The position numbers and the translations under genes were made by a program. DNA of 64,000 nt from Squalus acanthias (lineage: Eukaryota), in NCBI GenBank assembly GCA_030390025.1, contig JASTWF010000033.1:2978001-3042000 (forward strand), in the 5' to 3' direction. Positions 49,365 through 62,454 of the stretch are shown one piece after another. The stretch's first letter is position 1; each line of letters opens with the position of its first letter. The notes beneath the pieces are model-generated. The model was not told the origin of the DNA. It ran no database searches and was given only the letters and a program-made list of their open reading frames with translations.

Positions 49365-51801
49365 TGTGTTCTTCTAGGTGAAAAATGAATTCACTCGAGT
49401 CTCTCTGAAAGCAGAAGATCACAGTTTCTTTAACAGAGCGCTCTGGGAAGGAGCCATAGACTCCGCGGTCTAGTGATCCACTTCTTGTCGTTACAGTGGT
49501 ATTGAAACTTCTTTTATACTTTATAGGGTCGTTACGCAATTCATTACATACAAATGTCTTCACCCAATCACATTCCCCCATCAACAGACTTCTAATTATA
49601 AACTGCATTTAAAGCTAAAAAATGTTACTCCCTATCGAAACTATAAACATCGAAATGTTGTGTCAGCTCTGTCTGGTCGGACTGGCTGGCCATGCGGTGA
49701 TTGGTTCTCAAGTGTAACCGTTGTACTATTATTATTTTGGTGGGCCTCGGACGTATGCATGTTGACCACAGCCATTACTCATCGCACTGTGTCAGCGAAA
49801 CCATTCTAAATTTACGAATTTATTACATTCTTTAAGCCCTATAATTTTTACTCTAACAATCCCTCCTTTTGTTCCCTGATCAAAACTCCTTTTGTGACAG
49901 GGAGCCAGCATCATACGGATTTATGGTAATGTAAGTCGATATGTTTACATTCCAGGGGCTCACAGTCCGTTAGTCAGATTGTGGCATCCTTGTATAGGGA
50001 CTCATATCCACACATCTCTCTCTCCGGGTGTCATTGATTAACCATCATTACACTTACAGCAAGCCGTGACATTTGAGCGCAACAATATTTTAACAATAGG
50101 GCCAGACCATACATTACTAATATTATAACAAAGAACAAAATCATTCCTTGTACTACTGTTGTCCCGAGTGATCCCTACTATCAAGATGCCCAGCCCCAAA
50201 GGGTGGATGCCGGAGGTTGTTTTAATGTTTTTAATTCTTCCTGTATGTGTTCTGCCAAGTTAGTTATTGCTTCCGAGTTATCTGGTATGTAGGTACAACA
50301 TTCTGTACCTATTAGGGCACAGGTTCCCCCTTTTTCCACCAACACATAGTCAAGGGCCATCCGATTTTGTACTGCTACTGTGCGGAGGGCTACCATCTCT
50401 GCATTAACCTTAACTAGAGCTTCAGCTGTATCGTTGGCCACCTGCTCCAAGACGGAGGCCATGTTAATGGATTCCCTTGCCAATTTACCCGCTCCATTCT
50501 CGGGGCAACCAGGGATAGGCCCTATGACCGCACACGAAATGAGTCCCGTTGTCGGAGGTATACTTATTTACCTCTGGCGGATCCCATTGTACTGAAAAGT
50601 CACCGCTTTCGTTTAGTGACGGGAGGTTCACACTACCCGTTTTACCAGGCAAGGCAATGTTATATGTGCAGTTACTGTAGCCCACAATAGGATCTGTCGG
50701 TCCTCCCCTCTTTACGAGACGTAGTCCCCCCCCTTTGTCCCACCTTACTCCTCGTTCTCAGTAACGGTGGTAGATAGGAATCGTTATATGTTGACCATGT
50801 CCACCCAATACAATATTCTGGGTTGTACCCATGACGTTGCAGCTTTGCTATAGTTCTGCCGTCTGTCTTGGCTTCATAACATCCCACACTTTTGCATCCT
50901 GCTCTATCACCAAACATCCAACTGACCATCTCATCGTCACTAAGTGGGATTGGTTGTAGGGGGATTACTTCCTCCGAGTGCGTGGGAACATGGGCGCAGA
51001 CCCAACAGCTGGCAAAATCAACTCTCTTGGCATATGTGTACGACATATATAAAAAGGTGTTCACCCGTAACCCACTTTTGGCCCGTGGGAGTACGCTAGC
51101 CTGACTCCTCCCGAGGCTACATATTATGATTATACAAACTAGCAAACTACACATGATATTGCGTAACACGATCATCTTATCACTTTATGTTAACAATGTT
51201 GCAAAGGCTATATCGCCAACCGAACCGCTTTGTTGCTATAAAGATTCTATTTTCCTGTGGGGGTGAATAGAATACTGTCATTATACTGGGTCCTCGATCA
51301 GAATCATTTGGATTACCTCCTCCTGCTCTACGGTTGGAGTCGATGGGAATGCTCCCATACATGCTTCACGATACATCCCATGGTGTATCCCATTATGACA
51401 ATGCATATTGTCCATACCAACGTTCGTACTAGCGCCCATTCCCATTCTTTAATTGTTTAACGTATTCTTCACTTCCCACAAAAGGTACTTGCTCTAGTGT
51501 AGCCATTTTTAAGCTGGCGAAGGGTCATAGTCTTTTAGCTGTGTCCAGTGCTTCCATCGTCTCATGCCCTTCATATCAATGCAAGCACACGTATCTCCAC
51601 TAATTAGAATCTGATATGGTCCTGACCATTTTGGGGGAAACCCGGGTTTCCCTGGTAAAACTTTAACCATTACCGTAGTCCCGGCTGGAGGGATATATGG
51701 GAGCGCGGTCAATTCTAAATCCTTATAATTTTCTTCCTGTCTCTCCCGCGTTTGCTGCCTCATTTCCTTTAATTGACTGCTTAATTCGAGGACATACCTT
51801 C
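49365..51801 (-). mobile_element. ERV-C: 3' remnant of an ERV (integrase C-terminus, gamma-type env, PPT, 3' LTR ~49365-49858)
   Basis: PKWSGPYQ (IN); signal plus CWVC (SU); VQNRMALDYVLVEKGGTCALIGTECC (ISD + CX6CC); PPT AAAAGGAGGGAT at 49870-49859. Confidence 0.9.
50040..51175 (-). pseudogene. env: ERV-C gamma-type env, frameshifted and internally deleted
   Basis: CWVC, THFVCGHRAYPWLP, CKS-17-like ISD, CX6CC and a TM helix. Confidence 0.88.
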
Positions 51802-52281
51802 TGTAGGAGTAAATTTATTATAGGGTTTTAATAAGAAATCTAAAATTAAAGAAAGTGCCGTAAGAAGTAAATTCGTAAATAGAAAATGGTTTCGCTGACA
51901 GTGCGATGAGTAATGTATGTGGTCAACATTGAGGCCCACCAAGGAGGCCACCAAGGCAATAATAGCACAACGATTACACAATCAACGCATGACTGGCTAG
52001 TCCGAATGGACAAATGTGAGGCAAACCGTTATGCTTGTAGTTTCGTTAGGGAAGTAACTTTTGAACCTAACGTACATATTATAATTAGAAATCTGTTGCT
52101 AAGGCTATGTGATTGGATGAATAATGTATACAAGGAATCTCATACCGCTGTAATTTCGAGAAGAAGTAGTCACTAAGCTGAGGAGTTTACGACATCTTCT
52201 CCCAAAGATCTTTGAACATTAATAAACTGTTTGGTTGTATCTATGACACAGAATGGAGTGAAATAATTTCTCCACAACAAA

Positions 52282-52299
52282 TGGCGTCACGAACAGGAT
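52282..52299 (+). promoter_or_regulatory. Primer binding site complementary to a tRNA-Ser 3' end
   Basis: TGGCGTCACGAACAGGAT, 2 nt after the LTR; as I recall it, this matches the vertebrate tRNA-Ser(CGA) end ...AUCCUGUUCGUGACGCCA. Confidence 0.8.
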
Positions 52300-53217
52300 A
52301 ATTCGGAGCTGAAAACCGCCTGTACCAGTGAACGGGGCAAGTAGTCAAATCTTTGACCGCCCAGAAATTGGGTCACTCGGAAGGTGGGTGTGTTCGGCAA
52401 CGCAGTATCAAACGAATGTGGTGTCTGTGACGGTAGCGAAACAGTTATTAAAACCTAGGTGGGACATGAAGTGTTTGTAATGTATTAATAGTGGTTAAGA
52501 TGATTGAAGCCTGATGTGTTATTTCGGAATGTAAATGCCTCGAGAGCCCATGCTGAGCCGAAATTAAGAGGGCGATTGGGCCCCACGTGACGGCCCGAGT
52601 TAGTTGGGAATCCGAGACAGACAAAGAATTTGTAAGAACCTCTCTGCTTCGTTGCGTTGCGGGATCTATTGGATGGTATTACGTGAAGAATTGTGATAAT
52701 GTATTAATGGCTACAAGTGAAACATCACCTCTGAGACAAGTGAAATAATCACCTCTGAGACAAGTGAAACCTTCACCTCTGAGTGCAAGATAGTTACAAG
52801 TCAGGCCGCCATCATACAGGTGGTGGTCGATAGGCAGAACCTCTGAGAACGAGTTGCTAGGACGGACCGGAACGCGGTAAACTATTGACAAAGAATAACA
52901 CATTATGGCGGCGGGCGAGGAACCAGATTGGGGCCCGCCAGGATCCATGAGTCGGCTCTACGCCGAGGACCAAAAGGGATTTAATGATAAAATGAAGAAG
53001 GATGGATGGGATCCTGTAGGAAACCTAATGGCGCAACGGGAGTGGTGGGAGAAGCAGAAACAAAAGAAAACTAGAAAGGCAGGAGTGATTTTAATACATC
53101 AGGTGATAATGAAAACAAAAGGGGTTAACACACAAACCAGTAAGATGGAAGAACAAGGAATTAGAAAGTATAATAGAACGGATGGAATTGACAAATAGAG
53201 GGAACAGAAATGGTGAG

Positions 53218-56200
53218 TGTGGTAACACAATGCAGCTTCCTGTGACTTGAACTTTATTACATCACTTCCTGTGATTAGTCCAGGATAAATACTGGGCTGA
53301 TCAGTTGGATCCTGGAGAGGCAGAGAGTAAGACCTCTTTTGTATGTAGCACCTTTTTAGTTGATTAAAGCTTACTTTAAGTTCACCACGCATAAGGCTCA
53401 TTCTTACGACAATTTAATCAACTTTGAAAAATTTCGCACTCAAACTTTTTGGACGAACTCGGAACTAAGGATCCAGGGAATCACCCATCATGGAAAACAT
53501 CCTTAAACCATCGCGTCTTGACTTGGACCCAAACACCCCAGCAGCCGGTAAGGTGTGGAAACACTGGTATCGCACGTTTGACAATTTTCTCGAATATTGC
53601 AAGGCTGATGATGACTCAAAATTGCGGATACTCATCAACTGTGTCACCCCGAATGTATTTCAGTATGTCGAGGAATGGGGCAGTTACGAGGAGGCAATTC
53701 GGACGCTTAAAAGACTATATACTAAGACACCGAATGAGGTCTATGCCAGACATCTACTAGCTACAGCCCAACAAGGGCCGGAGGAATCCATTGATAAATT
53801 CCTCCAAGAGCTTCGCAGACATAGTATGGACTGTAACTTTCAGGCGGCCTCAGCTGAGCTGTACCGTGAAGAAATGATCCGTGATGCTTTCATCAGCGGG
53901 CTTGCCTCCCCATTTATACGCCAGCGTCTACTGGAAAGTAAGACACTTGAGCTTCAGAGAGCTTATGACATGGCTTGCTCTCTAGATCTGGCAAAAAGAA
54001 ATGCAGACCTTTATACAGTGCCCAGACCTCGGTCTGCTGCCTTAACTACAGTCAGGCAATTTAAGAGGCCACAGGTGAACTCTATTAGGGAGGACTTTAT
54101 CCCTGACGATCAATCTGATGACTTCACTGATGAAGAGGATGATGACCCCACTGTGGCAGCCTCTTGGCAATCTAAGAAATGCTTCTTCTGTGGTGATGAG
54201 TTTCACCCTCGGAAATTCTGCCCTGCTCGCAATGCGTTTTGCGGTCATTGCAACAAAAAGGGTCATTTTGCAAAGGTTTGCCTATCAAGAGCCTCTACGA
54301 GGGCTTATCAAGCTAAGTCCTACCGAACTGCCCCGGTAAGGGCCTATCAAGATGTTCCGGCTAAAATCTATCGTGCTTCCTCTCGGGTTTTCTCTCGAAG
54401 AAACACACCTAGAGTTTCAGCCACTCTTTGTGCAACGACACCAATTACAGCTGCTTGTCCTCAGAACCTATTCCATGCAGCTACAAAAGCATCAATTAAT
54501 GGACATACTTTAGATGCCTTAATTGACTCAGGTAGCACTGATAGTTTCATTAGGGAACAGATTGTTGCAGAGTTAAAGCAGAGTTTCCCATCGGACCAGG
54601 CAATTGCGATGGCTCAGTCATCACTTAATACCAGAATTTCTGTCTTTTGTATGGTTGAAATAACACTTAATGGTCACAGGTATCCCTCCACCCGGCTTTC
54701 GGTGCTCAAGGACTTATGTAGTGATCTTATCTTAGGGCTAGATTTTCAAAAGCAGCATAAGAAGCTCACCATTGAGTTCGGCGGATCCAAACCTGAACTC
54801 ACTATTTCTAATATACGACCTCGATTACCGTTCTGTGCATTGTCAGCAGCTTCACTGGATGAACCTTCACTGTTTACCAGTAACCCTCCTCGATGCAAAC
54901 CGATTATAACAAAGTCACGACGTTTCAGTCAGGAAGACCAGTCTTTTATTGCGGCTGAGATTTCTCGGCTTTTAGCAGAGGATATCATCGAGCCTTGTTC
55001 GTCGCCATGGCGCGCCCAGGTCGTTATTGTTAAGAACCCTCTACAACCTCACAAGAAACGGCTGTGCATTGACTATTCACAGACCATCAATCAATATACG
55101 GACTTGGACGCATACCCATTGCCGCGCATCGATGATATGGTTAATAAACTGGCTGAGTACACGGTGTTCTCAACATATGATCTGAAAAGTGCCTATCATC
55201 GGGTACCCTTGAAGGTCTCAGACAAGCAGTATACGGCCTTTGAAGCCAATGGACGGCTGTATCAATTTCGTCGCCTCCCCTTTGGGGTCACTAATGGAGT
55301 GGCTGTCTTCCAGCGAGCAATGGATGACCTGGTCAAACAGGAAGACTTAAAGGATACGTTTCCTTATCTGGACAATATTACTGTCGCAGGTCGCAATCAG
55401 CGAGAACATGACGCCAATCTCCAACGATTTTGGGATGCACTCCAGCACCGTAATTTGACATTAAATGCGGCTAAATCCATTGAGTCACAACCAACCATCA
55501 ACATCCTTGGCTATTGTGTGGGCAATGGCATCATTAAACCTGACCCTGAAAGGCTTCGCCCACTCCAAGAACTCCCGCCACCTAAGAATCCGGCCTCCTT
55601 GCGCCGGGCCCTCGGCCTGTTTGCATACTATGCTAAATGGATTCCTAACTTCTCGGACCGAATCCAACCTCTACTGAAGGCCAGCACATTCCCACTAGAC
55701 ACAGAGGCTGTTGCAGCCTTTAACCTCCTGAAAAAACAGTTGGAGAAAGCGGCTCTTCACTCCATCGATGAGAGTCTTCCTTTTGTTGTTGAGTGTGATG
55801 CCTCGGAGGTGGCGATCTCGGCCACTCTGAATCAGGAAGGTCGTCCGGTGGCATTTTTGTCCAGGAATTTTCAAGGGGCTGAGCTACATTATCCTCCAGT
55901 CGAGAAAGAAGCTACAGCCATCATAGAGGCAGTACGGAAGTGGACTCATCTCCTAGCTCGCCAGCACTTTACCTTAATCACGGACCAGCGATCGGTCGCC
56001 TTCATGCTCGATAATCGAAAAGGGACCAAAATTAAAAATAATAAAATCCAGCTTTGGCGGCTGGAATTGGCCTCTTTTGGTTACACCATCCACTATCGAC
56101 CTGGCAAGGAGAATGTGGCTCCGGATACCCTCACACGAGCATTCTGCTCCGCCATGGCACCCTCTACGCTCGTAGACATCCAGGATGGGTTGTGTCATCC

Positions 56201-57694
56201 GGGCGTTACTCGCATGCTACACTTCGTGCGGTCCCGAAATCTCCCATTCTCTACCGGGGATGTAAAGAAGATGTGCTCGGACTGCAGAGTCTGTGCGGAA
56301 TTGAAACCTCAGTTTTTCCGCTCCTCGGGTGGTATACTCATATATGCGACCCAGCCAATGCAACGGCTTAGCATCGATTTTAAGGGGCCGTTGCCCTCTT
56401 CAACTCGCAACACTTATCTATTGACCATGGTCGATGAGTATTCCCGTTTTCCGTTTGCCTTTCCCTGCCCCAATATGCTGACGACCACGGTTATCAGCTG
56501 CCTTGAGCAGGTATTTGCTTTCTGTGGCATGGCATCCTATGTTCATTCGGATCGGGGCCCTTCTTTTATGTCAGGAGAACTCAAGGCCTATCTCTCGGAA
56601 CGGGGTATTGCTGCCAGCAGAACGACGCCTTATCATCCGGTCGGGAATGGGCAAGTCGAGCGTTTTAACGCTATCATCTGGAATGCGGTACGTCTGGCTT
56701 TGAGATCTCGGGGCCAACCCAACCAGCAATGGGAAGCAGTACTTCCAGACGCATTACACTCCACACGGTCCCTCCTTTCGACCGCCATAAATACGACGCC
56801 TCATGAACGGTTCTTCCGATTTCAGCGTCGCTCATCCTATGGGATATCTCTCCCGTCGTGGCTGACTGCACCGGGACCAGTGCTACTCCGAAGATATGTT
56901 CGGGCGTCTAAGAATGACCCCCTGGTAGATGAGGTTGAGCTCACTGACATCAACCCTACCTACGCCTATATTCGGTATCCTGACGGTCGGGAATCTACCG
57001 TGTCATTGCGGGATCTGGCTCCCTGCCCGCCGAAACATAGAGGGACACCAGGGGATGATATTGTACCAGGCACATCTCTGGGCTCGCCAGGTGGCTCTCA
57101 TCACGATCTGGATCTGACGCCGGCTGGTACCTCACTCCAGCGTGCCGACCTGGGGCAGACTGACTATGAGCCCATCGGGGCTCGCACGCGCAGCCACGAT
57201 CCACCCCGTACCATACGCTCGGAAACGGATCTGCCACAGCCCTGCCCGACACCCGTTCGGGCACCAGTAAACAGTCAGGATCGTCCTGACCCCTCACAGA
57301 GCGGGCTGGATCACTCGGACTCTGGTCCACGGCCCGCGGCGGGTAAACGTGCTAGGGGCCCTCTACCGCTACGAGAACCCAAACGGGTGCGGCTCTCCCT
57401 CGTCCAGCGGCTACGAAATGGAGGGAGAATGTGGTAACACAATACAGCTTCCTGTGACTCGAACTTCATCCCGGCCTTCTAATGTTTTGGGGGGTTAGAA
57501 TGTGGTAACACAATACAGCTTCCTGTGACTTGAACTTTATTACATCACTTCCTGTGATTAGTCCAGGATAAATACTGGGCTGATCAGTTGGATCCTGGAG
57601 AGGCATAGAGTAAGACCTCTTTTGTATGTAGCACCTTTTTAGTTGATTAAAGCTTAATTTAAGTTCACCACGCGTAAGGCTCATTCTTACGACA
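53218..57694 (+). mobile_element. Full-length Ty3/Gypsy LTR retrotransposon nested in ERV-B gag
   Basis: 194-bp LTRs at 53218-53411 and 57501-57694 (4 substitutions counted by eye); 5-bp TSD GTGAG at 53213-53217 and 57695-57699. Confidence 0.96.
53490..57437 (+). CDS. Intact single-ORF Gag-Pol polyprotein (Gag, two zinc knuckles, PR, RT, RNase H, IN), 1315 aa
   Basis: CFFCGDEFHPRKFC and CGHCNKKGHFAKVC; LIDSGS; YLDN at the RT YxDD position; VECDAS; HPG...CSDC; IDFKGP, HSDRG and GQVER. Confidence 0.95.
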   Translation: MENILKPSRLDLDPNTPAAGKVWKHWYRTFDNFLEYCKADDDSKLRILINCVTPNVFQYVEEWGSYEEAIRTLKRLYTKTPNEVYARHLLATAQQGPEESIDKFLQELRRHSMDCNFQAASAELYREEMIRDAFISGLASPFIRQRLLESKTLELQRAYDMACSLDLAKRNADLYTVPRPRSAALTTVRQFKRPQVNSIREDFIPDDQSDDFTDEEDDDPTVAASWQSKKCFFCGDEFHPRKFCPARNAFCGHCNKKGHFAKVCLSRASTRAYQAKSYRTAPVRAYQDVPAKIYRASSRVFSRRNTPRVSATLCATTPITAACPQNLFHAATKASINGHTLDALIDSGSTDSFIREQIVAELKQSFPSDQAIAMAQSSLNTRISVFCMVEITLNGHRYPSTRLSVLKDLCSDLILGLDFQKQHKKLTIEFGGSKPELTISNIRPRLPFCALSAASLDEPSLFTSNPPRCKPIITKSRRFSQEDQSFIAAEISRLLAEDIIEPCSSPWRAQVVIVKNPLQPHKKRLCIDYSQTINQYTDLDAYPLPRIDDMVNKLAEYTVFSTYDLKSAYHRVPLKVSDKQYTAFEANGRLYQFRRLPFGVTNGVAVFQRAMDDLVKQEDLKDTFPYLDNITVAGRNQREHDANLQRFWDALQHRNLTLNAAKSIESQPTINILGYCVGNGIIKPDPERLRPLQELPPPKNPASLRRALGLFAYYAKWIPNFSDRIQPLLKASTFPLDTEAVAAFNLLKKQLEKAALHSIDESLPFVVECDASEVAISATLNQEGRPVAFLSRNFQGAELHYPPVEKEATAIIEAVRKWTHLLARQHFTLITDQRSVAFMLDNRKGTKIKNNKIQLWRLELASFGYTIHYRPGKENVAPDTLTRAFCSAMAPSTLVDIQDGLCHPGVTRMLHFVRSRNLPFSTGDVKKMCSDCRVCAELKPQFFRSSGGILIYATQPMQRLSIDFKGPLPSSTRNTYLLTMVDEYSRFPFAFPCPNMLTTTVISCLEQVFAFCGMASYVHSDRGPSFMSGELKAYLSERGIAASRTTPYHPVGNGQVERFNAIIWNAVRLALRSRGQPNQQWEAVLPDALHSTRSLLSTAINTTPHERFFRFQRRSSYGISLPSWLTAPGPVLLRRYVRASKNDPLVDEVELTDINPTYAYIRYPDGRESTVSLRDLAPCPPKHRGTPGDDIVPGTSLGSPGGSHHDLDLTPAGTSLQRADLGQTDYEPIGARTRSHDPPRTIRSETDLPQPCPTPVRAPVNSQDRPDPSQSGLDHSDSGPRPAAGKRARGPLPLREPKRVRLSLVQRLRNGGRMW

Positions 57695-60399
57695 GTGAGG
57701 ATAAAGAAAGACCCCCACCGTATGCCTCGGCCCAATCGAAAACGAAGGCGACGTTCCGGTAGTGCCGATTGCCCCCGTAATACGATACCCAGCGGCTGAC
57801 AACAGTCGATATCAGGCTTTCACGCCTCTTGAAAAACAAGCCGTTCTCCAAGATTTGGGAATCCTCAAACCCCGTAGTCAGAACGCCGAGTTCTGGGGAA
57901 ACCTGGAGGGAATGTGGGACATCCATGATTGACACTGTAAGGATATCCATCAGTTAGTTAGGGCATCATGCCCAGCCGACAAATGGAGAAATGTAAACCC
58001 CGCTGTAGGCATGCAGGATGGAGCATGGACAGATGCAATGGCTGCGGGGGCCGCACAGGCGGCACAACAAGCAGCATTTGGGCCTTAAAATCGCAGTAGA
58101 AACAGCACTTGGGGGTCCTACTATAAATTGGGGAAAAATCCAATCAGTAAAACAATCAAAGGGAGAATCTAGTAGTGAGTATGGAGATCGATTGTTTGAT
58201 GCTTATTGTGAATCGTCAGGGCAAGCAAATCCACAGCGAACAGACCAGTCCTTTATCCAGCTGTTTAAGGAAGGACTCTCATCGGCACACCAAGCCATCC
58301 TAGAGTTGGGAGTGTTGGTCGCCCCTCATACGCTCTCGCGGTTCAATGGGCATGTCAGATAGATGCTAAGGGACCTGAACCCACAGGAAAGGGAGGTATA
58401 AAAATCAAACAGGAGAAGGTAGCAGCAGGGGGGGCATCGCAACCGTACAAGAGGATTCAGGGGAGCTGTTATACTTGTGGAAAAGTGGGACATATGGCGA
58501 AGGATTGCAGGAGTGGAAAGAAAGGGGGATGTGACTATTGTGGTAAGCTAGGACACCAGATTTACAACTGCTGGAAGAAAGGAGAGGTGGACCAGACACA
58601 GGGCGCTTATTTTAGTCCGGAGGAATAGAAGGGAGTCTGACTGGAGGCGGCCCCAGTAAAAGGAGGCTCGGATAACCGAGTCGACGTTGCAGCATTATTA
58701 GGGGGCCAATCGTGTGAAATGCTAATTGATACAGGAGCATCAGTATCTTTACCTGATTTTCCCCGTCCGACAAACCAAAGATAAAGAAGGAAAATATCTA
58801 ATTTGCAGGCTAACCAATCTGAAAACGCAGCTTAGACAAAAAAAAGAGATTTGGAAAGCCAGGAAAGCTGCTGAGACACCTATGTAGAAAGAAAAAAGAG
58901 ACAAATTTAAAGTTTTACCGACATGGAATTTATTAATGTCTGAGCCGAGACAAATAAAGCACAAGATTTGTTGAGTGAAAGGAATCGTAAAAGGAATGCT
59001 GGGATCTAAGTTTGAGTGAAAGTGAGAATTGAAGAGTGAAAGTCTGCCTGACTGTGAATGTTTACGGAGTTGCAGTATTTATTTTGTCTGAAAGTCTGTC
59101 TTTAAAAAGGTATGTGTCATTTTTGTTTTAGCTCCACCCACTCTTTTGTACAGAGAGCTAAAAGCTGTTTAACCCTTTGAAGACTTGTTTTGAATGATGG
59201 ACAAGCGTGTGTTGTTTTAAGTTTGTTAATTGTTTTACAAAACATAAGCTTCAGCCTTGAAGTCACAGTTGCCAATGTGCCTGGAAGAAAATGAATTTGA
59301 ATGTTTACAAGGCATGGGTAATTGTTTCTTTGTTAATGTGGCTACGGTTTCTTTCTTTTCCAAGTGATACTGGTTAGTTTACAAAAAATTGATCTGGATT
59401 GAAGTGGAGTTATTGAGGTTAATTAACCTATTAAAACAAGACTTTCATTTTGGCCACGGTGAAATTCTGGTTGGTGTAAATTTGTGTAGACCACATTGAT
59501 TATGATATTTAATGGTCTGAAACCAGACTTTAAAACATTTACAGTCTTGGATACAGAACGGGTTCTGGTCCATACCATTGGCAGAGGAATCACAAGGGAA
59601 ATCGCCTTTACTGTCGGGGATAGACAGTATACCTGAACCAGGGTCCAGCATGGTTCCACAATAGTCCAAATATATTCCACCATGTACTGAGTCAAGCCTT
59701 AGACCAGTTAGACCTGTCAAAGTATCAGAGTGCCCTACTCCAATATGTCGATGACATAATGATTGCATCAGAGGATGGCAAAGGACATATGGCAGCATTA
59801 CACTTAAGAAAGCTGGCTTTAAATTGAACCCAAAAAGGCACAGGTTGGACGGTCCAAAGTAAAGTATCTAGGACACGAAATTAACCAGGGGTATAAGGCA
59901 CTCCTGCAGAAACAAAAGGCAGCCATAAAGACATGCCAAGGCCAGAGACCGTCCGGGGAGTGAGGAAAATGTTGGGACTATTTAACTACTGCAGGAATTT
60001 TATATCAGACTTTGCAGGGAAAGCAGAGCCGATTCAACGGTTAGTTAAAGAGGGATCCAGCAGCGAAGGCAATGCCACGATGTGTGGCTGCAATAGATTG
60101 TGCCCCAAGAATTGAAAAAATAAACTTTGAACTACAGTTTAAGTTAAGCTGGTGTGTAAACTGAGAAGAACAACAAAAAGTTTGTTTAACAAAAGATTAA
60201 GTTTCGGTCTAAGATTTGACCTTGGAGTTACGGTTGCTATGGTGAAATCTTCCAAAGCAGTTTGATTTGATTTGCTTAAATGTCAAAAACTAATTTTTCT
60301 CCAGTTATATTCAATGTTTTTACAGTATTTTGGAAAGGCATCTGAAGAAAGGAAAATAAGAAATATGATGTAACAGAACGTGGGGTAAACCCGGTACGA

Positions 60400-60810
60400 A
60401 TCCAGTATGAGGTGATTTTGGTGGTACTTCCTGTGTCACAGCTACCGCAATTACCATGCTTTATGGGTCTAACAGGATCTGTCCCATCAACCAACACGTT
60501 TTTATGTATGAGCGATGCAATTATGTTTTCACAATTCGGATACTACATTCCCCAGTGAGCTCATGATGCGACTGAACTCCTCCCTAAAGCATTTTTATGT
60601 TTTGGAGGAAGACAACTCGAGAATACATGTTGAAATTGACAGCATAGAGGACAACTCACACTGGTGGGATATTGGGCTTAATATATCAGCACACCCTTAG
60701 ATTTGTATTATTTCACACGCTCTGGTAGTTCTCCAACTTGTAATGATAGTGTATTTGATATATGTAACCTATGTAGTAAGATACATAAGCCAATTGGGTA
60801 CTCATACCTG
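60400..60810 (+). pseudogene. Remnant of an ERV-A-type env C-terminus (heptad, WW, TM) inside ERV-B
   Basis: SLKHFYVLEE...WWDIGLNISAHP*ICIISHALVVLQLVMIVYLIY aligns to ERV-A SQKHFYSLEQ...WWDIGLSIEIPPWIRISSHALVIIQLFLVSYLFY. Confidence 0.8.
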
Positions 60811-60959
60811 ACTAACCAGCACCAACAAATTAAATGAGCACACCGAAAGAGAAGATCCAAAGCAATATAGAGGAGACCCAGGCGGGGTAACATCAGGAAA
60901 GATAGAAGAAACAGAGGATACCCCAGGCGGGGCATAATTGGAACACCGGAACAATGAAT

Positions 60960-61868
60960 TGAATTTGAGCAAGGGGATTGGTCTGGGCATTATGCATCAT
61001 TCTGATTTGCTTCACATTGGGTTGTAGTAAATGCGAGCAGAAATATGAATTAAAGGTGACCAGTAGTGGGTACGGTGGTGCAACCTTCACGTATGGGACG
61101 TGGAATCTCGGTACAATTCCAAACATGAACAGTGGGGGGCCATGGAAGGGTAACATCATGATAATGAATAACATATGGAGTAGGTATGAAGCCTATAATA
61201 ACACTTACTTCATTGGGGTATGTCGTACCCTTTGTACATCAATGCCTAAACCTCAAGGAACACCCAGCCTATCGTTATAAACGAGAAATTAACGAGGCTG
61301 AAAGATACTTCGCGATCTATCTACCCCCATACGGAGTCGCGAGAGCTATTAAAGAGATACGGTTCTTGGCAGAGGTTTTAGAACAGGTTGGGAATGATAC
61401 AGCAGAAGCTCTAATAGACATTAACGCCGAGATGGTAGCGATAAGGACAGTGACGCTACAGAACCGAATGGCACTTGATTAACTCCTAGCAGAAAAGGGG
61501 GAACGTGTGCATTGATTGGGACAGAGTGCTGTACATAAATTCCTGACAGTTCAGAAAATATAATTAATTTGGCAGAACACATACAGGAGGAAGTAAAGAA
61601 ATTAAAACAACCTCCGGCATCCACCCTTTGGGGCTGGGCAACTGGATGGTTGGGATCACTCGCGACATCAGCAGTACAAGGATTTATTTTGTTCTTTGTT
61701 ACAATATTAATGATGTATGGTCTGGTCCTATTGTTAAAATGTTGTTGCGCTCAAATGTCACGGCATGCTGTAAGTGTCATGATGGTTAATCAAGTGACAC
61801 CCAGAGAGAGAGATGTATGGATATTAGTCCCTATACAAGAATGTCACAGTCTGACTTTTGGAATGTGA
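60960..61868 (+). pseudogene. env: ERV-B gamma-type env (deleted SU, RYKR furin site, ISD, CX6CC, TM)
   Basis: YRYKREINEAERYFAIYLPPYGV, LQNRMALD, CALIGTECC and GFILFFVTILMMYGLVLLL. Confidence 0.9.
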
Positions 61869-62454
61869 GCTCCTGGAGTGTAAACATATCTACTTACTTT
61901 ACCAGAAATCCGTATGATGCTGGTTCCCTGTCACAAAGGAATTTTTGATCAGGGACCAACAGAAGGAATTGTAGGATTAAAATTTATTATAGGGTTTTAA
62001 TAAGAAATGTTAAATTAAAGAATGTGCCGTAAGAAGTAAATTCGTAAATAGAGAATGGTTTCGCTGACAGTGCGATGAGTAATGTCTGTGGTCAACATTG
62101 AGGCCCACCAATGAGGCCACCAAGGCAATAATAGTACAACGATTACACAATCACCGCATGACCGGCTAGTCCGAATGGACAGATGTGAGGCAAACCGCTA
62201 TGCTTGCAGTTTCGGTAGGGAAGTAACATTTGAACCTAACGTACATACTATAATTAGAAATCCGTTGCTAAGGCTATGTGATTGGATGAATAATGTATAA
62301 AAGGAATCTCATACCAGTGTAATTTCGAGAAGAAGCAAGTTACTAGACTGCGGAGTTCATGGCTTCTTCTCCCAAAGATCTCTGAATATTAATAAATTGT
62401 TTGCTTCAACCTATCACACAGACTGGAGTGATGTAATTTCTCCACAACAACGCG

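Follow-up and report, generated by a model that had tools for sequence, protein, structure and literature searches.

A chromodomain-free Ty3/Gypsy lineage of animals with a primer site complementary to its own LTR, and its probable self-priming

The window analysed here is a stretch of 64,000 nucleotides from Squalus acanthias (assembly GCA_030390025.1, contig JASTWF010000033.1, positions 2,978,001 to 3,042,000 of the forward strand). It contains an intact, young Ty3/Gypsy LTR retrotransposon, with TG...CA LTRs, a target-site duplication, a polypurine tract and protein domains in the order PR-RT-RH-IN. The limits of its LTRs are fixed, because the 5-bp duplication GTGAG flanks the element at both ends. 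The features of the element, in window coordinates, are the following:

53213..53217, + strand: left copy of the target-site duplication (GTGAG), matching the right copy at 57695..57699
53218..53411, + strand: 5' LTR, 194 bp, TG...CA, with 4 mismatches to the 3' LTR
53358..53368, + strand: LTR arm, putative self-primer and predicted first 11 nt of the RNA; exact complement of 53413-53423
53363..53368, + strand: ATTAAA, a hexamer resembling a poly(A) signal and closing the arm on its 3' side; the sole A[A/T]TAAA in the LTR stretch checked
53369..53381, + strand: small hairpin of 5 bp with a 3-nt loop (centroid fold), beginning directly behind the arm, where cleavage is predicted
53412, + strand: one-base spacer (A) between the LTR end and the primer site
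53413..53423, + strand: primer-binding-site position, complementary to the element's own LTR (sequence match)
53490..57437, + strand: single gag-pol ORF of 1315 aa (ORF translation and Pfam), with two CCHC-type motifs in the Gag part and Pfam domains for protease (aa 333-419), RT (522-675), RNase H (738-863) and integrase (901-1050)
57415..57466, + strand: upstream polypurine tract, with a repeat of the initial ~37 nt of the LTR
57489..57500, + strand: polypurine tract adjoining the 3' LTR, with two T in the window copy
57501..57694, + strand: 3' LTR, in which the arm copy (57641-57651) lacks a partner and is predicted by folding to be unpaired
57695..57699, + strand: right copy of the target-site duplication (GTGAG), matching the left copy at 53213..53217

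Neither Chromo nor SH3_Tf2-1 was detected in the protein with Pfam (E<=0.1), in agreement with a preliminary description made from the DNA alone, according to which the element has no chromodomain. Rfam gave 0 matches for 53150-53600 (E<=1). The polypurine tract and the first ~37 nt of the LTR are present twice (57415-57500), the second copy lying 71 bp upstream of the 3' LTR. Both tracts are kept in 10 of 12 copies fetched from the genome, and in two copies that are 71 bp shorter (L121 and L129) the 3' LTR sits at the upstream tract, a layout that suggests two usable plus-strand priming sites. The element is itself nested in an ERV-like element (~51802-62449) whose LTRs measure ~480 bp and which has a TGG primer site as well as remnants resembling env, and a second element related to this surrounding one lies on the minus strand at ~49500-51800.

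At the downstream edge of the 5' LTR, the terminal CA (53411) is followed not by TGG but by one A (53412) and then by TTTAATCAACT (53413-53423), which is the exact reverse complement of AGTTGATTAAA (53358-53368) within the LTR. The match ends at 11 nt on both sides. The preliminary description had reported the missing TGG, the 11-nt complement and its overlap with an ATTAAA, and all three are found at these positions. It had also placed the arm in an initiator-like TTAGTT context, which is present at the window arm but is not fixed, a second subfamily carrying an extra A before the arm.

Proteins 46-62% identical to the window protein over most of the query come, where the source is named, from crustaceans, cnidarians and a tunicate. 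The loci fetched for comparison comprise 80 from metagenomes (the best 80 of 445) and 9 filed in bacterial MAG records, the latter being presumably host DNA. Loci were counted when they had an intact gag start and enough upstream DNA (43, window included), and the duplex was scored by perfect complementarity of the bases that follow a CA to upstream sequence. Of the 43 loci, 28 have a perfect duplex of 11-18 nt, against a mean of 0.05 and a maximum of 1 out of 43 in 60 rounds of shuffling for duplexes of at least 11 nt; duplexes of at least 9 nt are present in 30 loci, corresponding to 21 families. As a control for circularity, LTR ends were set by target-site duplications alone in nine loci, eight of which have a duplex of 11-17 nt, the ninth being a decayed copy. 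Each of these primer sites matches the LTR of its own family; compared with the LTRs of other families, they match over at most 7 nt, the exception being L050 and the window, which have a common arm sequence. Fifteen of the 43 loci fall below 11 nt and 13 below 9 nt. L067, L070 and L086 are visibly decayed copies of positive families that fall short of the cut-off, L093 has an imperfect pair, and no duplex is seen in L032, L037, L046, L047 and L101. One family of the lineage (L096, L097, L099 and L102, of which L097 and L102 are included in the trees described below) has a duplex of at most 8 nt, and consists either of old copies or of a real exception. A scan of viral contigs found no members of the lineage, and an atlas search gave generic RT clusters only.

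The pairing follows a common layout in the 21 families. In 19 of them, a single base separates the LTR end from the start of the duplex. The 5' edge of the duplex varies (9-18 nt), and the distance from the arm to the LTR end is 20-86 nt. The arm's final three bases are A in 20-21 of the 21 families, and its last six are AATAAA or ATTAAA in 13; the 8 families without a canonical hexamer at this place nevertheless retain the duplex, the final AAA and the hairpin. At positions -5 to -13, two to four different Watson-Crick pair types occur. Close relatives show the same correspondence: of 500 columns aligned between L049 and L051, 5 differ, and two of the 5 are precisely the bases that pair, and the one-base indel that separates L084 from L110 is present in both arms. 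Such paired changes would be expected where plus-strand synthesis copies the primer into the primer site, as is established for tRNA primers, and selection on pairing could also give them. The preliminary description had staked its reading in advance on the conservation of the two 11-mers among relatives, and the pairing is both conserved and covarying across families. As judged by sequence comparison, the self-complementary primer site is a real trait of the lineage, well supported by this covariation.

Two further regularities concern the edges of the arm. An A is found at position -11 in 16 of the 21 families and a G at -10 in 19, following a T-rich run, a bias that fits an initiator together with an 11-nt primer, the length known from Tf1; TATA-like boxes ~30 nt upstream occur in only 3 of the 21 families, and not in that of the window. 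No poly(A)-like loose end was listed in the assembled RNA contigs of four runs, a kind of data that does not show starts or ends. At the other edge, a hairpin with a stem of at least 4 bp immediately follows the arm in 16 of the 21 families, a count reached in 0 of 2000 shuffles in a pooled test whose span limit of 26 nt was chosen after the data had been seen, compared with 2-10 families when the hairpin is sought at other starting points. The stem itself shows changed pairs. With unlimited loop length, the hairpin test is not significant per family.

Within the host genome assembly (3.7 Gb), 2115 LTR-primer-site junctions were counted from the pattern of flanking letters only. The first 100 listed, which are all on one contig and whose arms were judged by eye, keep the LTR arm in 100 cases and the primer site in 97. 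Ten of the 12 copies fetched have 0-1 LTR mismatches and 5-bp duplications; of the remaining two, one carries a 3' LTR with a deletion, and the other could not be closed. Full-length open frames are found in many copies. The second subfamily, with its extra A before the arm and a pairing of 12 nt, makes up most of a set of 447 pattern matches. Judging from these copies, the window family is young and abundant and replicates without a tRNA-type site. A compensating change in the LTR arm was found in 0 of 9 primer-site mutants fetched from the host genome, the arm being unchanged in all, and copying of the primer into the primer site is therefore not seen within the window's family; uncompensated mutants are as expected from damage after insertion. 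The other LTR elements of this genome, read at the LTR end, have TGG sites and a self-match of at most 8 nt. A second young Gypsy family of the host genome (L152-L163) is CsRn1-like; its primer site reads TGGTG and its frames span ~1281 aa. No sushi-like chromovirus was found through SH3_Tf2-1, Chromo, DUF4939 or a plant chromovirus RT, which does not imply absence, and the SH3_Tf2-1 matches were ERV-like where readable.

The position of the lineage was examined in three trees (191, 80 and 54 rows), two of them built with IQ-TREE. In all three it forms one branch with a support of 100 and a long stem, and in the two IQ-TREE trees the plant, algal and fungal-like chromoviruses form their own branch without it (99 and 100 SH-aLRT). 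Forcing the lineage together with the fungal-like chromoviruses is not rejected by the AU test on RT-RH (p=0.17), and is rejected on RT-RH-IN (p=3e-5), a set in which the lineage was thinned to 14 rows and 26 candidate rows without an unbroken RT-to-integrase stretch were left out. Group labels are our own, and the fungal-like chromoviruses are represented by proxies from IMG/VR, Tf1, sushi and Cigr-1 not being in the trees. Chromo is present in the proxies L173, L179 and L184; the use of L173 as a stand-in is supported by its Chromo domain together with a 10-nt self-complementary site. Among the 120 matches listed for an algal chromovirus query, none was a named fungal or fish element, and a plasmid search returned one unrelated record. 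None of the six deep members of the lineage that were scanned has a chromodomain. The lineage is nearest to the Mag-like rows in the RT-RH-IN tree, a placement weakened by the long stems. The preliminary description had proposed placing the RT in a Gypsy phylogeny as a check; on the features tested, the lineage appears to lie outside the chromoviruses and not to be a Tf1/sushi member, with RT-RH alone leaving a link unrejected.

The best reading of these observations is Tf1-like self-priming with the element's own RNA, as the preliminary description had suggested, and we consider it likely in view of the lineage-wide pairing and covariation. The RNA would start at A53358 or a few bases before it, and its first ~11 bases would fold onto 53413-53423. 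Cleavage behind the three A (53368/53369), where the small hairpin begins, would then follow, probably through the element's RNase H, and the freed 3' end would prime minus-strand DNA. The short interval separating this cut from the poly(A) site would be used in the first strand transfer, the 20-86 nt from arm to LTR end being enough for a short repeat region. Each cycle would write the primer back into the primer site, and the paired changes would thereby be accounted for.

Several alternatives have to be weighed against self-priming. A chance match in A/T-rich sequence could be argued from the 9 of 11 window pairs that are A-T and from the weak fold of the 83-nt window stretch (z -1.18, with 26 of 200 shuffles folding equally well; the folds of three relatives have z -2.1 to -5.6), but a match of at least 11 nt is reached in only 14 of 20000 Markov-resampled window LTRs, and the family survey (28 of 43 against 0.05) refutes this explanation, whose probability is practically negligible. 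That a host tRNA fragment acts as primer is very improbable. The D-loop of tRNA-Ile(AAT) resembles the arm, 2 of the 100 listed genes (of 340) could pair with the site via two G-U wobbles, and a decayed copy (L233:1490-1565, minus strand) carries 10 of the 11 arm bases in its D-loop; this copy is however a single one and not called a tRNA, and most of the 100 listed tRNA-Ile genes mismatch the site. The arm placed 5' of a T-loop pattern gives 3 matches versus 3 in the control; none of the 3 is called a tRNA, and one is the decayed tRNA-Ile(AAT) copy. Moreover, a site that is copied from a tRNA primer in each cycle should match it exactly, whereas this site matches the LTR, and the primer sites of the 21 families differ, each following its own LTR, and therefore cannot follow one tRNA. 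The tRNA-Ile D-loop was consequently rejected as primer, on account of its mismatches, its control-level pattern and the family-specific sites. The screening of host tRNAs, which the preliminary description had named as a further check, gave no intact tRNA in which the arm lies 5' of a canonical T-loop, in the part of the host set that was covered (63 scored genes; the 13 loci typed are Lys and Cys).

The remaining alternatives accept the duplex and give it, or its origin, another meaning. The pairing might only hide the 5' poly(A) signal against premature polyadenylation, with priming by another route. AATAAA or ATTAAA at the end of the arm in 13 of 21 families would suit such a function, as would the fact that the partner of the arm exists only downstream of the 5' LTR, the 3' LTR arm being predicted unpaired; as the sole role it is nonetheless improbable, as it would leave no primer site at the place defining the LTR end, has no need of the fixed one-base register (19 of 21), and sits poorly with the 8 families that keep the duplex and the final AAA without a canonical hexamer. 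This idea, which the preliminary description had offered as its alternative, is thus disfavoured as a full account but may hold in addition to self-priming: with the hexamer inside the arm, the same duplex would make the 5' copy of the signal inaccessible while the 3' copy stayed free, so that masking may be a side benefit. It is also possible, though unlikely, that the element's own RNA does the priming, though not from its capped 5' end: a fragment from within a longer leader could take this role, as could a second genome copy through a 3' end at or near the hexamer. A TATA-like GATAAATA lies ~70 nt upstream of the window arm, and in the window's family the A run that follows the primer site can form pairs, with a bulge in between, to T-rich bases upstream of the arm. 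Polyadenylation, on the other hand, normally takes place 10-30 nt downstream of the hexamer rather than at it, the bias at -11/-10 fits a start at the arm, and the perfect duplex stops sharply within 9-18 nt.

Self-priming itself is known from several systems. In the portions of the sources available to us, it is described for Tf1, with an 11-nt primer and an RNase H cut between bases 11 and 12 (PMC7175516), for Tj1 of S. japonicus (PMC4600332), and for Tf1/sushi, plant Tcn1 and the plant Copia TAR lineage (PMC6317226). As far as these descriptions go, the present lineage is similar to Tf1/Tf2 of Schizosaccharomyces pombe, Tj1, the Tf1/sushi group and Tcn1 in having no tRNA site and a primer site of ~11 nt complementary to its own LTR. 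It differs from Tf1/sushi in being a separate long-stemmed RT lineage without chromodomain or SH3_Tf2-1, and from Tf1 in that its arm ends in a poly(A)-signal-like hexamer and is followed by a local hairpin. Fission-yeast elements form a 'pretzel' fold around the primer site, according to the accessible part of a preprint (bioRxiv 10.1101/2022.12.06.519325). The side helix of this fold in Tf1 is absent in the lineage, the complementarity of the LTR loop to the 15 nt that follow the duplex adding up to 86 over 21 families versus 91 in shuffles, for this side helix only. The plant Ty1/copia TAR lineage (Houba, Osr-1) had its self-priming predicted from a match of at least 10 nt located 0-5 nt after the LTR (PMC6317226, in part). 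It thus resembles our lineage as a case outside Tf1/sushi predicted from sequence with a similar criterion, but belongs to another superfamily and to elements of another kingdom; the TAR case, so far as it is described there, provides a precedent for separate origins of self-priming, and that of the present lineage is probably separate from Tf1/sushi.

Elements that we take, from motifs, to be Mag-like and CsRn1-like are present in the host genome, are tRNA-primed, and share with the lineage the domain order, a CCHC-type Gag and short LTRs; unlike it, they have TGG sites and no self-match, and identity in aligned stretches is ~25-34%. The Cigr-1 clade of Gypsy (Ciona, molluscs) is characterized by a single ORF of ~1200 codons and an echinoderm-like Gag, and such features make a link with the lineage a presumed lead only. 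Cigr-1 is placed under the Mag branch in the supplement of PMC6238403, and the available main text of that paper mentions neither PBS nor self-priming. Bivalve TRIMs, fungal GalEa and Dictyostelium Skipper are also without canonical primer sites (PMC6934838, PMC5445492, PMC5006619), and no complement in the LTR is reported by the authors of the GalEa and Skipper studies (PMC5445492, PMC5006619), in the sections read. Nothing on the priming of the lineage is contained in the accessible portions of PMC3601003, PMC11042837, PMC3670739, PMC2774666, PMC7472051, PMC8220671 and PMC6238403. Our search, which covered the literature in part, yielded no publication on self-priming in a chromodomain-free animal Gypsy lineage, although the primary element descriptions (Butler 2001, Simmen and Bird 2000) and Repbase entries may already note it.

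Self-priming in animals has so far been tied to sushi chromoviruses. If the present reading is true, a second abundant and recently active animal lineage would use it, meaning that tRNA-free priming arose more than once within Gypsy, and the apparent lack of a primer site in the automated annotation of such elements would be explained. The full proposal, to which we would give about an even chance, is that of a widespread animal Gypsy lineage (crustaceans, cnidarians, tunicates and Squalus acanthias) whose self-priming is independent of Tf1/sushi and in which one 11-nt stretch serves as transcription start, poly(A) signal and primer, the hairpin behind it marking the cut. Pairing would hide the 5' poly(A) signal and cutting would make the primer, a compact RNA design with initiation, polyadenylation control and priming in one short sequence. 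Since 3' tRNA fragments could not act at a primer site of this kind, elements that have no tRNA site would be spared silencing by them.

A few minor observations were made along the way. In several families the arm looks like the D-loop of a tRNA, a resemblance that may be due to chance. L111-L119 are animal-type Gypsy elements in bacterial MAG records, some with both LTRs and target-site duplications, and are probably host DNA in the bins. In L098 (3822-8236), a repeat pair corresponding to the L065-family LTR in opposite orientation surrounds a partial match, probably reflecting nested or inverted copies. In the host genome, copies spaced 4247 and 4295 bases apart (G000:C1:566506-575082 and G000:C4:939442-944924) suggest tandem arrays sharing LTRs, as reported for Tf1/Tf2 in the available part of PMC11042837.
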